64,000 bases of DNA from Escherichia coli (GTDB taxonomy: Bacteria; Pseudomonadota; Gammaproteobacteria; Enterobacterales; Enterobacteriaceae), in the NCBI RefSeq assembly GCF_009931435.1, contig NZ_CP043414.1, one strand, 5' to 3'. The position numbers and the translations under genes are program-made. The notes under the pieces were generated by a model. That model was not told the origin of the DNA, ran no database searches, and was given only the letters and a program-made list of their open reading frames with translations. Shown here one piece after another: positions 19,174 to 56,224 of this stretch. The first letter of the stretch is position 1; every line of letters begins with the position of its first letter.

Positions 19174-20229
19174 ATGACGACATTTATTCAGCTCCATTTG
19201 TTAACCGCTTACCCTGCAGCCAACCTTAACCGTGATGACACCGGTGCGCCGAAAACCGTGGTGCTGGGTGGAGCAACGCGTCTGCGCGTTTCCTCGCAAA
19301 GTCTGAAACGTGCGTGGCGCACTTCTGCACTTTTTGAACAGGCGCTGGCGGGCCATATTGGTATTCGTAGTGGGCGTATCGCGCGCGAGGCAGCAACTAT
19401 CATGATTGAGAAAGGAATCGAAGAAAAAAAAGCCATCGAATGGGCGGCAGATATTGCCGATTATCTTGGTAAAGCCAAAAAAGACAAAAAAACAAAAGAT
19501 CCGCTCACTAACGCTGAAACTGAACAGCTCGTCCATATCAGCCCTGCAGAATTTGACGCCGTAAAAGCGCTGGCCCATCAACTGGCAGAAGAAAAGCGCG
19601 CGCCAAAAGAGGACGATCTCGCTTTGTTACGTAAAGATCGTATGGCGGTAGATATCGCCATGTTTGGTCGTATGCTGGCGAATAAACCCGAGTTTAATGT
19701 TGAAGCCGCCTGTCAGGTCGCGCACGCGTTTGGTGTCAGTGAAACGATTGTCGAAGATGATTTTTTCACCGCCGTTGATGATTTGCGCCAGGCCTCTGAA
19801 GATGCTGGTGCAGGGCATCTTGGTGAAACTGGGTTTGGTTCTGCGCTGTTCTACACCTATATCTGCATTGATAAAGATCTGCTGGTCGAAAACCTCGGCG
19901 GTGACGAAGCATTAGCTAATCAGACCCTGCGCGCCTTTACGGAAGCAGCGTTTAAAGTTTCCCCAACCGGTAAACAAAACAGCTTTGCCAGCCGTGCCTA
20001 CGCCTCCTGGGCGCTGGCAGAAAAAGGCACCGAACAACCGCGTTCTCTGGCGGCGGCTTTCTATGAACCCATTAATGGCACACGTCAGTTAGATGTGGCA
20101 GTGCAGCGTATTACAACGCTTCGCGAAAACATGAATACGGTTTACGAACAGAAGACCGAATGCGCAAGTTTTGACGTGATGAACAAACAGGGAAGCATGA
20201 AGGACGTGCTGGACTTTATCTGCGCGTAA
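19174..20229 (+). CDS. casC: Type I-E Cascade backbone subunit Cas7e/CasC
   Basis: ORF track; 351 aa with N-terminal ...AANLNRDDTG... typical of Cas7e. Confidence 0.9.
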   Translation: MTTFIQLHLLTAYPAANLNRDDTGAPKTVVLGGATRLRVSSQSLKRAWRTSALFEQALAGHIGIRSGRIAREAATIMIEKGIEEKKAIEWAADIADYLGKAKKDKKTKDPLTNAETEQLVHISPAEFDAVKALAHQLAEEKRAPKEDDLALLRKDRMAVDIAMFGRMLANKPEFNVEAACQVAHAFGVSETIVEDDFFTAVDDLRQASEDAGAGHLGETGFGSALFYTYICIDKDLLVENLGGDEALANQTLRAFTEAAFKVSPTGKQNSFASRAYASWALAEKGTEQPRSLAAAFYEPINGTRQLDVAVQRITTLRENMNTVYEQKTECASFDVMNKQGSMKDVLDFICA

Positions 20230-45804: not shown

Positions 45805-48366
45805 TTACAGCAAACTCTTCAAGCGGTAAATCCACTCCAGCGCCTGACGCGGGGTAAGTGAATCCGGGTCGAGATTTTCCAGTGCTTCGACCGCTGGCGA
45901 GGTTTCTTCCGGTACTGACAGCAAAGACATTTGCGTACCATCCACTTGCGTAGCGGCGGCGTTCGGCGAAATGCTTTCCAGTTCACGCAGTTTTTGCCGT
46001 GCGCGCTTAATCACCTCTTTTGGCACGCCCGCCAGAGCAGCAACCGCCAGGCCGTAGCTTTTGCTCGCCGCGCCATCCTGCACACTGTGCATAAAGGCAA
46101 TGGTATCGCCGTGCTCCAGCGCATCAAGATGCACGTTGGCGACGCCTTCCATTTTCTCCGGCAGTTGAGTCAGTTCAAAGTAGTGGGTAGCAAACAACGT
46201 CAACGCTTTAATCTTATTCGCCAGATTTTCAGCGCACGCCCATGCCAGCGACAGACCATCGTAAGTGGACGTTCCGCGCCCAATCTCATCCATCAACACC
46301 AGGCTGTACTCCGTGGCGTTATGCAGAATATTAGCGGTTTCGGTCATCTCCACCATAAAGGTTGAACGCCCGGATGCCAGATCGTCAGCCGCGCCCACAC
46401 GGGTAAAGATACGGTCAATCGGGCCAATCTCGACTTTTTGCGCCGGTACGTAGCTGCCGATATAGGCCATCAGCGCAATCAGTGCAGTCTGGCGCATATA
46501 GGTACTTTTACCGCCCATGTTCGGACCGGTGATGATCAACATGCGACGCTGCGGCGACAGGTTCAGCGGGTTAGCGATAAACGGCTCATTCAGTACCTGT
46601 TCAACCACCGGATGGCGACCTTCGGTAATGCGAATGCCCGGTTTATCAATGAAGGTCGGGCAGGTGTAGTTCAGGGTATAGGCCCGTTCCGCCAGGTTCA
46701 CCAGTACGTCGAGTTCTGCCAGTGCGCTCGCGCTCTGTTGCAACGCCTCCAGATGCGGCAACAGCAGGTCGAACAACTCTTCATAAAGCTGTTTTTCGAG
46801 TGCCAGTGCTTTACCTTTCGAGGTGAGTACTTTGTCTTCATACTCTTTTAGCTCTGGAATAATGTAGCGTTCGGCGTTTTTCAGCGTCTGACGACGCATA
46901 TAGTTGATGGGTGCCAGATGGCTTTGTCCACGGCTGATCTGAATGTAATAACCATGCACCGCGTTAAAGCCGACTTTCAGCGTGTCCAGGCCGGTACGTT
47001 CACGCTCGCGAACTTCCAGACGCTCCAGATAATCTGTCGCGCCGTCAGCCAGCGCTCGCCACTCATCCAGCTCTTCGTTATAGCCTGATGCGATAACACC
47101 ACCGTCGCGTACCAGCACCGGCGGTGTGTCGATGATTGCTCGCTCCAGCAGATCGCGCAGCTCGGCAAACTCGCCCATTTTCTCACGCAGCGCCTGTACC
47201 GGTGCACTATCGACACTTTCTAACTGCGCGCGTAGTTCTGGCAGTTGCTGGAAAGCGTGACGCATACGGGCCAGATCGCGTGGGCGAGCAGTCCGTAAAG
47301 CCAGACGTGCCAGAATACGTTCCAGGTCGCCGACCTGACGCAGTACCGGCTGCAGCTCAGCGGTGAAATCCTGCAATGCGCCAATAGTTTGCTGGCGCTC
47401 AAGCAACACGCGGGTATCGCGCACTGGCATATGCAGCCAGCGTTTCAGCATTCGACTCCCCATCGGCGTTACAGTGCAGTCGAGCACGGAAGCCAGCGTG
47501 TTTTCCGCACCGCCCGCCAGGTTCTGGGTAATTTCCAGGTTACGACGCGTCGCGGCATCCATAATGATGCTGTCCTGCTCACGTTCCATAGTGATAGAAC
47601 GAATATGCGGCAGTGTCGTACGTTGCGTATCTTTCGCATACTGCAACAGACAACCGGCGGCACAAAGTCCGCGCGGCGCGTTCTCGACGCCAAAACCGAC
47701 CAGATCGCGAGTGCCAAATTGTAGATTCAACTGCTGGCGCGCGGTGTCGATTTCAAACTCCCACAGCGGACGACGGCGCAAGCCGCGACGACCTTCAATC
47801 AGCGACATTTCAGCAAAATCTTCTGCATACAGCAGTTCCGCCGGATTAGTGCGTTGCAGTTCTGCCGCCATCGTTTCGCGGTCAGCCGGTTCACTCAGGC
47901 GAAAACGACCAGAACTGATATCCAGCGTCGCATAGCCGAATCCTTTGCTGTCCTGCCAGATAGCAGCCAGCAGGTTGTCCTGACGTTCCTGCAATAGCGC
48001 TTCATCGCTGATGGTGCCCGGCGTAACGATACGCACAACTTTGCGCTCGACCGGCCCTTTGCTGGTCGCCGGATCGCCAATCTGTTCACAAATAGCAACG
48101 GACTCGCCCTGATTCACCAGTTTGGCGAGATAGTTTTCCACCGCATGGTAGGGAATCCCCGCCATCGGGATCGGCTCTCCCGCTGAAGCGCCGCGTTTGG
48201 TCAGTGAAATATCCAGCAGTTGTGACGCACGTTTTGCGTCGTCATAAAACAGTTCGTAAAAGTCACCCATCCGGTAGAACAGCAGGATCTCGGGATGCTG
48301 GGCTTTCAGCTTGAGATACTGCTGCATCATTGGCGTATGGGCGTCAAAATTTTCTATTGCACTCAT
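45805..48366 (-). CDS. mutS: DNA mismatch repair protein MutS
   Basis: ORF track; 853 aa; Walker [10 protein letters not shown]. Confidence 0.95.
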
Positions 48367-48612
48367 GGGGTTATGTCCGGTTCCCTGATATTAAATGGGG
48401 TGTGATGGTTTTTATTTTCGTTGTAATCACATAAGGCGCACATGATACCGGAGTTAATCATTTCAGGGGAAGAAGCGAACGGCGAGTTCTTGATGGTGAT
48501 TCCGGGAAAGATGCTGTTTTGCAGCTTTTGCGTGATGCTTATGAAGCAAGTACGCAAAATTGTATCAGTTGGCGAACCCTTCTTCTTCAGAGCCATAGTC
48601 CCCTTTCAAATT

Positions 48613-48635
48613 AAGTTGTAATATAAATACATCTT
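48613..48635. promoter_or_regulatory. Candidate NsrR operator upstream of ygbA
   Basis: aagttgtaatataaatacatctt resembles the NsrR 11-1-11 inverted repeat; ygbA is a known NsrR-regulon member (established knowledge). Confidence 0.4.
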
Positions 48636-48652
48636 AATGAGGTGGAGGCAGC

Positions 48653-49006
48653 ATGTCCGGCAAGCGTATCTCTCGTGAAAAATTGACGATTAAAAAAATG
48701 ATCGATCTTTATCAAGCGAAATGCCCGCAGGCGTCAGCGGAGCCGGCGCATTACGAGGCATTGTTTGCTTATGCGCAAAAACGGCTGGATAAATGTGTGT
48801 TCGGCGAAGACAAACCCGCCTGTAAGCAGTGTCCGGTGCACTGTTACCAGTCTGCAAAGCGTGAAGAGATGAAACAGATTATGCGTTGGGCCGGGCCGCG
48901 CATGCTGTGGCGTCATCCGATCCTAACCGTACGCCATCTCATTGATGACAAGCGTCCGGTGCCGGAGTTGCCAGAAAAATATCGCCCGAAAAAACCTCGT
49001 GAATAG
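48653..49006 (+). CDS. ygbA: Nitrosative-stress-associated protein YgbA (117 aa)
   Basis: ORF track; GAGGTGGAGG before the ATG; Cys-rich N-terminal half. Confidence 0.85.
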   Translation: MSGKRISREKLTIKKMIDLYQAKCPQASAEPAHYEALFAYAQKRLDKCVFGEDKPACKQCPVHCYQSAKREEMKQIMRWAGPRMLWRHPILTVRHLIDDKRPVPELPEKYRPKKPRE

Positions 49007-49045
49007 TATACCGGACAGGCAGATCTGTCCGGCACCTCAATGCAG

Positions 49046-51124
49046 TTAAACCAATGCCGATTTATCAATCCCCAGTCGTTTCATCCGTGATAGCAGTGTG
49101 GTGCGTTTTAGTCCCAGACGTTGCGCCGCGCCTTTCGGCCCGGCAACCACGCCGTTAGTCTCTTTTAATACACGCACAATTAGCTGATATTCATCTTCGC
49201 CCTCCTGAGCGACGACCGTTGCAGTCGGCGGCGTTTTAGGTTCCGGTAAAGCAATATCAGGCAATGACAGCTGCAGCACGTTGCCACGTGTCAGCAATAC
49301 CGCGCGCTCAATGACGTTTTCCAGCTCGCGTACGTTACCCGGCCACTCCATATTGCTCAACGCGCGCAACGTTTCGGCAGGAATGCTGTCGATATTACGC
49401 CCCAGACGGCGGGCAATTTTAAAAGTAAAGGCTTTTGCCAGCAGCGGAATATCTTCCGGACGCTCGCGTAGTGGCGGCAGGTGGATCGGGAATACGTTCA
49501 GGCGATAATAGAGATCGCTACGGAACTCGCGGTCGGCAACCATTTTTTTCAGATCGCGGTTAGTCGCGGCAATTAAACGCACGTCCGTCTGTATAATTTT
49601 ATTACTGCCGAGACGTTCAAACTCCTGTTCCTGTAATACACGCAGCAACTTCGGTTGTAACTCCAGCGGCATATCACCCACTTCATCGAGGAACAGGGAG
49701 CTTTTATCCGCCAGTTCAAAACGACCGATACGCTGGGCGCTGGCTCCGGTAAACGCACCACGCTCATGACCAAACAGATCGCTTTCCAACAATCCGGCAG
49801 GCATCGCCGCGCAGTTCATTTTTACCATGCGGCGATTATTACGCCCACTGAGATTATGGATCGCGCGGGCAATCAGCTCTTTACCAGTGCCAGTTTCACC
49901 GAGAATCAGCACGGTACTGTCACTTTGTGCCACCATTTCAACTTGTTTAAGCACGCTGTACATGGCTTCACTGCGACCAATAATCTCGCCAAATTCACTA
50001 TCAACATTGTTGAGCTGCTCGGTCAGGGCGAGATTTTCATCAACCAGTCGTTCTTTCAGACGATGAATTTCCTGATAGGCAAGGGCGTTATCGACAGCGA
50101 TTGCCACACGTTCGGCAATCTGGCGCAGTAAATTCAGATTGGTCGTGGTAAACACTTTCTCTTCGCATTGCGCCAGTTTCAGCACGCCCAGCATGGTGTC
50201 GCCAGACATCAGCGGTAACAGGCACAAGGTTTGAATCTGGTTGCCCCAGGTGTCGAACAACATGCGTTCGTAGGGGGCTAAATTATCTCGCTCGTGGAGA
50301 TTAATCAGCAGCATCTCTTTGCTTTTAAACACGCGTTCGGTGAGGGTTCCAGCTTCATCGACTTCGCTCTGTTCGTGAGCGGGATGCTGTTTATCAAGAT
50401 AGTGAGTGGAGTAGATGTTGAGTTTGTTTTTACGGTGGCTGCGTAAGACGATGCTGATATCGTCAATGTCGAAATAGTAATGGATTTCTTTGGCGACTTC
50501 GCTGACCAGTTCGTCCATATCCAGGCGAGAAAGCACCGCGTTGGTGATGGCAACCAGGATGCGGAAGTTATCGCGTTCCCGGCATAACAACTCATAGTCG
50601 ACATTATTGACGACGCGGCTCTGGATTTGTTCGGTGACGACAGAAATGATCTGCGTAAAAGTTTGCAGGCGATTGAACTCTTTTTCACTCCACGGGCGAT
50701 CGTCATAACGAATAAATTCACAGCCACCAAAAATATGCCCTTCCGCCGCCAGTGGCATCAGGCAATAGTGACCAAATTTGGGGTATAGCCCACCAGCGGC
50801 CAGCTGCGGCCAGGTTTCACAAAATTCTTCGTAACTGCAATGTAGTGTATCAGGGCGCGACAAAATGCTGCGCACTGGACCGTGTGCCAGAACAGTTTCG
50901 TCTTCATAATTTATGGGGGTGTCTTTTTCACGCGACGCGTAATAAGACGCACGTTGAGTCTGCGCTTGCCACAACACAATAGCTGCATTGTCGGCGAGCG
51001 CAGAACGCTTTACCAATTGCGAAAGAGCCTCACACAGCGAGGCCAGATCGGGCTGCTGCAATAGTGTCCGAGTGATGTCGAACAACCCTTGTTGTCCGAG
51101 ATCACTCATCGGTGTATATGACAT
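49046..51124 (-). CDS. fhlA: Formate hydrogenlyase transcriptional activator (sigma-54-dependent, 692 aa)
   Basis: ORF-track frame 49046..51160; start taken at MSYTPMSDLGQQ...; GAF domains, AAA+ Walker A GETGTGKE, GAFTGA motif, C-terminal HTH. Confidence 0.9.
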   Translation of the reverse strand: MSYTPMSDLGQQGLFDITRTLLQQPDLASLCEALSQLVKRSALADNAAIVLWQAQTQRASYYASREKDTPINYEDETVLAHGPVRSILSRPDTLHCSYEEFCETWPQLAAGGLYPKFGHYCLMPLAAEGHIFGGCEFIRYDDRPWSEKEFNRLQTFTQIISVVTEQIQSRVVNNVDYELLCRERDNFRILVAITNAVLSRLDMDELVSEVAKEIHYYFDIDDISIVLRSHRKNKLNIYSTHYLDKQHPAHEQSEVDEAGTLTERVFKSKEMLLINLHERDNLAPYERMLFDTWGNQIQTLCLLPLMSGDTMLGVLKLAQCEEKVFTTTNLNLLRQIAERVAIAVDNALAYQEIHRLKERLVDENLALTEQLNNVDSEFGEIIGRSEAMYSVLKQVEMVAQSDSTVLILGETGTGKELIARAIHNLSGRNNRRMVKMNCAAMPAGLLESDLFGHERGAFTGASAQRIGRFELADKSSLFLDEVGDMPLELQPKLLRVLQEQEFERLGSNKIIQTDVRLIAATNRDLKKMVADREFRSDLYYRLNVFPIHLPPLRERPEDIPLLAKAFTFKIARRLGRNIDSIPAETLRALSNMEWPGNVRELENVIERAVLLTRGNVLQLSLPDIALPEPKTPPTATVVAQEGEDEYQLIVRVLKETNGVVAGPKGAAQRLGLKRTTLLSRMKRLGIDKSALV

Positions 51125-51197
51125 TTTGTTCTTCCAGGAAAGCACCGCAAAGCGGTGCAAAAGGTCATTGACTAACTATAGGAGATTTAGAATTTTA

Positions 51198-55488: not shown

Positions 55489-55612
55489 GCTGAGGCTTTG
55501 CCCGTTTTGCAGGCGTTACGCCTGTTTGGGGATGGGCGTGTCGATGAGTGTCGAAAATGACATTTCATCGGCATGTTTTCGTCAAAAATGACAATCACCT
55601 GAGGAATGCCTG

Positions 55613-56224
55613 GTGAATCGTTTTGTAATTGCTGACTCCACACTCTGTATCGGCTGCCACACCTGTGAGGCCGCCTGTTCAGAGACGCATCGCCAGCACG
55701 GCCTGCAATCAATGCCGCGCCTGCGAGTGATGCTAAATGAAAAAGAATCTGCGCCGCAGCTCTGTCACCACTGTGAAGATGCACCCTGTGCGGTGGTCTG
55801 CCCGGTTAACGCTATCACCCGCGTTGATGGGGCAGTGCAGCTGAATGAAAGCCTGTGCGTAAGCTGCAAACTGTGCGGCATCGCCTGCCCGTTTGGCGCA
55901 ATCGAATTTTCCGGCAGCCGTCCGCTGGATATTCCGGCAAACGCCAATACCCCGAAAGCACCACCGGCACCGCCTGCTCCGGCGCGTGTCAGCACGTTGC
56001 TTGACTGGGTGCCGGGTATTCGCGCGATCGCCGTCAAATGTGACCTCTGTAGCTTTGATGAACAAGGTCCAGCCTGCGTGCGGATGTGCCCAACCAAAGC
56101 CCTGCATCTGGTGGATAACACCGATATCGCCCGCGTCAGCAAGCGTAAGCGTGAGCTGACCTTTAACACGGACTTTGGCGATCTCACCTTGTTTCAGCAG
56201 GCTCAAAGTGGAGAGGCTAAATGA
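55613..56224 (+). CDS. hycB: Formate hydrogenlyase Fe-S subunit HycB
   Basis: ORF track (GTG start, GAGGAA upstream); four CxxCxxCxxxCP ferredoxin motifs. Confidence 0.9.
   Translation: MNRFVIADSTLCIGCHTCEAACSETHRQHGLQSMPRLRVMLNEKESAPQLCHHCEDAPCAVVCPVNAITRVDGAVQLNESLCVSCKLCGIACPFGAIEFSGSRPLDIPANANTPKAPPAPPAPARVSTLLDWVPGIRAIAVKCDLCSFDEQGPACVRMCPTKALHLVDNTDIARVSKRKRELTFNTDFGDLTLFQQAQSGEAK

Follow-up and report, generated by a model that had tools for sequence, protein, structure and literature searches.

The window analysed here is a stretch of 64 kb (64,000 nucleotides) from an Escherichia coli genome. The region of interest lies between mutS (45805-48366, - strand) and fhlA (49046-51160, - strand), which flank ygbA (48653-49006, + strand), the regulated gene of this analysis; the order mutS-ygbA-fhlA is that of K-12. 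The 117-aa product of ygbA matches the Pfam family YgbA_NO (PF11756, E = 1.8e-40) and is 96% identical to E. coli YgbA. Its residue 67, in the segment CPVHCYQ[S]AK, is Ser, and 13 of the 14 orthologues in a 15-sequence alignment have Pro at this position. This is a minor allelic difference beside the conserved Cys/His cluster.

Among 5420 matching records, 5044 show 90-95% identity to positions 48300-49100 of the window (801 bp), and only one, from strain RMDEC465, reaches an identity of at least 99%. In the nearby hyc-hyp region, by comparison, every complete E. coli genome shows 95-99% identity, which marks the window as E. coli. Mosaic structure around mutS is known, and the divergence of the mutS-ygbA-fhlA junction, as judged by these identities, is consistent with it.

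The mutS-ygbA intergenic region contains several other features. An open reading frame of 59 aa (48442-48621, + strand) ends with a TAA stop inside the NsrR operator described below. In some E. coli genomes PGAP lists it as a hypothetical protein, but no Pfam match was found for it. In-frame stop codons interrupt it in both K-12 and Escherichia sp. MOD1-EC7003, and the frame is broken in E. albertii and in Escherichia sp. E1V33. Since the frame is interrupted in these ways in the relatives examined, it was rejected as a gene and is probably a spurious gene call. Further upstream, nested inverted repeats are present at 48510-48566, namely TTTTGCGT/ACGCAAAA, perfect over 8 nt with 18 nt between the arms, and GATGCTGTTTTGC/GCAAAATTGTATC. 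The same segment includes a terminator-like hairpin, GCTGTTTTGCAGC, followed by a T-run, at 48513-48525, and a loose FNR-like sequence, GTGAT-N4-ATGAA, at 48532-48545. A search of 48200-49200 for structured RNAs found none, and no Rfam family matches there.

An inverted repeat of the NsrR type upstream of ygbA

The 23-mer AAGTTGTAATATAAATACATCTT occupies positions 48613-48635 of the window, in the mutS-ygbA intergenic region. Read on the + strand, aagttgtaatataaatacatctt is identified as an NsrR operator by its sequence, by its score with a position weight matrix (PWM) and by its orthology to the corresponding sites of CFT073 and K-12. The two halves, AAGTTGTAATA and AAATACATCTT, are separated by a single T and form an inverted repeat of 11-1-11 architecture, which is imperfect in that only 8 of the 11 positions are symmetric. 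At its outer extent, as delimited by a repeat finder, the palindrome can be written ATTAAGTTGTA-N7-TACATCTTAAT and covers 29 bp (48610-48638), its arms being 91% complementary. The 3′ end of the operator lies 8 nt before the GGAGG core of the ygbA Shine-Dalgarno sequence (48644-48648, + strand) and 17 nt before the ygbA ATG at 48653.

For a quantitative comparison, a symmetrised PWM was built from 25 NsrR sites in Table 4 of PMC5320621, with the ygbA entry excluded. The operator scores 22.5 bits, the highest value in the 64-kb window. The exact tail probability of such a score is 1.2e-8 per position, which corresponds to 0.0008 sites expected per 64 kb. With the AT-rich composition of its own intergenic region as background the probability is 1.2e-7, and against a background of 70% AT it is 1.3e-6. 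The 26 published sites, ygbA included, score between 12.5 and 31.9 bits, and the window site falls within this range. Moreover, when the degenerate core consensus AANNTGYATNNNNNATRCANNTT was searched with at most one mismatch, the operator was the sole match in the window (with one mismatch), and dinucleotide shuffles predict 0.06 matches. The preliminary description had proposed an imperfect 11-1-11 inverted repeat resembling the NsrR consensus at this place. Both parts of that proposal hold: the palindrome is real, and its likeness to the NsrR motif is the strongest in the window. The one error concerns the distance to the ribosome-binding site, which had been given as about 20 nt; the gap to the GGAGG core is only the 8 nt stated above.

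Two further sequences in the window bear some likeness to NsrR sites. The second-best PWM match, 16.7 bits, is AAATGACATTTCATCGGCATGTT at 55555-55577, between hycA and hycB, with 35 nt separating it from the start of hycB at 55613. CFT073 has an identical NsrR site in front of its hycB gene, and a ChIP-seq peak was recorded there (PMC5320621, Table 4). The score of this match is not independent, because the identical CFT073 hycB sequence is among the 25 training sites. The sequence AAGATGCTGGTGCAGGGCATCTT at 19799-19821 has perfect outer NsrR-like arms (AAGATGC...GCATCTT) around a GC-rich centre, scores 8.7 bits and is probably a chance match.

The repeat could in principle be the operator of a regulator other than NsrR, for example another Rrf2 protein such as IscR, or Fur, FNR, NarL/NarP or CRP. 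Similar AT-rich palindromes are bound by Rrf2 proteins, ygbA is also induced by nitrate and nitrite, an effect that NarL/NarP could mediate, and 48628-48643 overlaps a loose match to a NarL-like 7-2-7 arrangement (3 mismatches in 14 positions). However, matches to the FNR, Fur, IscR type 1 and type 2, CRP and NarL heptamer consensus strings are no better than background, whereas the fit to the NsrR matrix is significant at the genome-wide level and NsrR regulation of the gene is documented. Assignment of the palindrome to a different regulator is therefore extremely improbable.

Indeed, ygbA is no newcomer to the NsrR literature. According to the part of PMC5320621 that deals with this gene, ygbA is a known NsrR-regulated gene, as established with reporter fusions; the same part cites a K-12 ChIP-chip study in which NsrR was bound at the ygbA promoter (Partridge et al. 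2009). Under conditions that generate nitric oxide (NO), ygbA is among the most up-regulated genes (PMC5320621). In a Salmonella nsrR mutant, ygbA mRNA is increased 31.8-fold (PMC2884951), and a communication from S. Spiro quoted by Rodionov et al. states that YjeB/NsrR represses hmp, ytfE and ygbA (PMC1274295). For CFT073, an 11-1-11 NsrR site was predicted at ygbA and printed as AAGGTGCATTTATATTACAACTT, which is the reverse complement of AAGTTGTAATATAAATGCACCTT, the CFT073 counterpart of the window operator (PMC5320621, Table 4). ChIP-seq in CFT073 detected no peak at ygbA, and the authors consider a false negative probable (PMC5320621).

The counterpart of the operator in K-12 MG1655, AAGATGTAATATAAATACATCTT, occupies the same place relative to the ygbA ATG and differs by 1 nt, at site position 4, and the CFT073 counterpart differs by 2 nt. 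The window site is thus orthologous to a promoter that has been shown by experiment to be bound and regulated by NsrR, being 1 nt away from the K-12 allele. The 71-nt stretch surrounding the site is rare: among 5426 complete E. coli genomes a single one has it in identical form, and most differ from it at 4-6 positions. Such rarity raises the question of a degenerate, non-functional promoter allele, in which NsrR control of ygbA has been weakened or lost. The substitutions argue against this. A4T (relative to K-12) and G17A and C20T (relative to CFT073) all fall at positions that are variable among published NsrR sites, and the right half AAATACATCTT shares 10 of its 11 positions with the corresponding half of the ytfE consensus. 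The score is essentially unchanged, with 22.5 bits for the window site, 22.65 for the K-12 allele and 21.8 for the CFT073 allele. Since substitutions at degenerate positions leave the score unchanged, loss of function in this allele can be regarded as most improbable.

Conservation of the site and its probable overlap with the core promoter

In a scan of a genome collection, ygbA loci were obtained from 80 species; most of these belong to the Enterobacteriaceae, and Hafnia and Rahnella are the outliers. When the 300 nt upstream of ygbA were searched, the best PWM match was found 12-21 nt before the ygbA start in 79 of the 80 species, and in 73 of the 80 it scored at least 14 bits. As a control, the best scores elsewhere in the same loci of about 3 kb had a median of 6.2 and a maximum of 14.3 bits. 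The sole exception in position is Hafnia paralvei, where 41 nt separate the best site, TACATGTATTATAAATATATATT (20.2 bits), from the ygbA start; this species may have a longer leader, or its start codon may be mis-set.

When the loci are lined up on the site, high information content is confined to positions 1-23 and the bases directly beside them. In these flanks, conservation amounts to 0.5-1.05 bits at positions -1, 0 and 24-26, and the T/A bases there are kept across species. Upstream of the site there is one further conserved island, yTG at positions -16 to -14, in which the G is present in 89% of the 80 species. Downstream, a G-rich island is conserved at positions +31 to +34, at the Shine-Dalgarno core. 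Within the site, 95% of species have A at position 19.

The left half of the site shows a peculiar pattern. At position 7, the ygbA orthologues have T in 100% of cases, compared with 62% C and 32% T in other NsrR sites. At position 11 they have A in 97%, and other NsrR sites have T in 82%. The central position 12 is T in 100% of the ygbA orthologues and has no preference in other NsrR sites. As a result, positions 7-12 read TAnnAT in 77 of 79 ygbA orthologues and in 0 of 25 other NsrR sites. The mirror positions of the right half follow the NsrR preferences; at position 17, for instance, 83% of the ygbA orthologues have G.

Because TAnnAT is nearly universal in the ygbA orthologues and missing from the other sites, the left half-site apparently serves as the -10 element as well. 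In the window, positions 7-12 correspond to a putative sigma-70 -10 hexamer, TAATAT, at 48619-48624 on the + strand. The yTG island and a spacer of 17 nt to the -10 point to a weak -35 hexamer, TAGTCC, at 48596-48601 on the + strand, which agrees with TTGACA at 3 of 6 positions. Transcription is predicted to start at 48631 (±2 nt, + strand), on the conserved A at position 19 of the site, which lies 7 nt downstream of the -10; the ygbA leader would then be about 22 nt long. The exact -10, -35 and +1 positions are thus predictions. A generic scan with the sigma-70 consensus called no promoter at ygbA, because both hexamers are sub-threshold in the window allele. A measured transcription start of ygbA was not found in the full texts searched, nor in the supplementary data published with the ROSE in-vitro transcription study and with two Salmonella transcription-start papers.

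The embedded hexamer also lends itself to a simpler reading, according to which the conserved block is the bare core promoter of ygbA, its palindromy and likeness to NsrR sites are coincidental, and NsrR acts indirectly or elsewhere. The invariant TAnnAT inside the block, the -35-like yTG at a spacing of 17 nt and the CFT073 ChIP-seq data with no ygbA peak would all fit. However, the symmetric invariant positions extend beyond what a -10 and a start site need, and include AA at 1-2 with TT at 22-23, G6 with C18, and A8 with T16. A score of 22.5 bits has a probability of about 1e-8, and still about 1e-6 when measured against 70% AT. In addition, upstream of ygbA there is no site of comparable score elsewhere, and both NsrR binding in K-12 by ChIP-chip and nsrR-dependent expression have been reported. 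A bare promoter is, on this evidence, a very unlikely explanation of the block.

The pattern instead favours a composite element, and the left half-site of the ygbA operator probably serves at the same time as the sigma-70 -10 hexamer, as far as can be judged from the comparison of orthologues. If so, the conserved departure of the ygbA sites from the NsrR consensus (T7, A11 and the central T) would be explained, and so would their intermediate affinity; the failure of ChIP-seq to detect ygbA in CFT073 might have the same cause. An operator that shares bases with the -10 is the standard architecture for a repressor acting by promoter occlusion. An explicit statement of this dual constraint at ygbA was not found in the literature examined.

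Proposed control of ygbA by NsrR and nitric oxide

Taken together, it is very likely that the sequence at 48613-48635 is the NsrR operator of the ygbA promoter; it would mediate repression by occlusion, relieved by NO. This reading builds on the observations that the site is present, scores far above chance, is orthologous to the published sites of K-12 and CFT073 and is deeply conserved. NsrR control, induction of ygbA by NO and the response of the Fe-S cluster to NO are drawn from the literature. NsrR is an Rrf2-family Fe-S repressor in which nitrosylation of the cluster lowers the affinity for DNA and derepresses the targets (PMC10783083). In the proposed mechanism, an NsrR homodimer carrying its Fe-S cluster would bind the 11-1-11 repeat. 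The repeat would contain both the putative -10 and the predicted start, so that NsrR, bound from about -18 to +5, would keep RNA polymerase off the promoter. This arrangement most naturally points to repression by promoter occlusion, which we infer from the predicted promoter positions. NO would nitrosylate the Fe-S cluster, NsrR would lose its affinity for the operator, and ygbA would be transcribed. The nsrR gene itself is outside the 64-kb window; of the 5426 complete genomes of E. coli, 5425 carry it.

The preliminary description had also placed the repeat over the ygbA promoter and predicted control by NsrR and NO. The former is supported by comparative evidence, through the conserved -10 hexamer that appears to be embedded in the site. 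The latter agrees with the K-12 ChIP-chip and reporter data, with the derepression in Salmonella and with the orthology of the site. The element is thus the already known NsrR operator of ygbA, and its identification is correct but ordinary. For this E. coli lineage, the sequence suggests that ygbA stays under NO control despite the locally divergent mutS-ygbA region. The gene also gains a precise annotation, comprising the operator, the putative -10 and -35 and the predicted leader. Apart from this, the added value is modest and consists of the comparative evidence for bases common to the operator and the -10; no new question is raised.

Comparison with known operators

The closest relatives of the window operator are the ygbA sites of K-12 and CFT073 (Bodenmiller & Spiro 2006; Partridge et al. 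2009; Mehta et al. 2015, PMC5320621), with which it shares the locus (mutS-ygbA-fhlA), the position relative to the ygbA start and the 11-1-11 architecture. It is identical to them at 22 of 23 and 21 of 23 positions, respectively, having T instead of A at position 4 in comparison with K-12, and A17 and T20 in comparison with CFT073. It differs from both in that the surrounding 71 nt represent a rare allele.

The operators of ytfE, hmp and hcp, which belong to the core NsrR regulon, have in common with the ygbA site the 23-bp palindromic motif AAGATGCATTT-n-AAATGCATCTT and the function, namely repression relieved by NO. In contrast to the core-regulon consensus, the left half of the ygbA site has T7, A11 and a fixed central T, giving TAnnAT. 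Its score of 22.5 bits is lower than that of hcp (26.9), which in turn is lower than that of ytfE (31.9). The IscR sites of type 1 and type 2 offer a more distant parallel. There, too, a dimeric winged-helix protein of the Rrf2 family binds an AT-rich palindrome of about 25 bp near a promoter. However, the ygbA operator has at least 9 mismatches to the IscR consensus strings, and IscR and NsrR differ in their effector logic.
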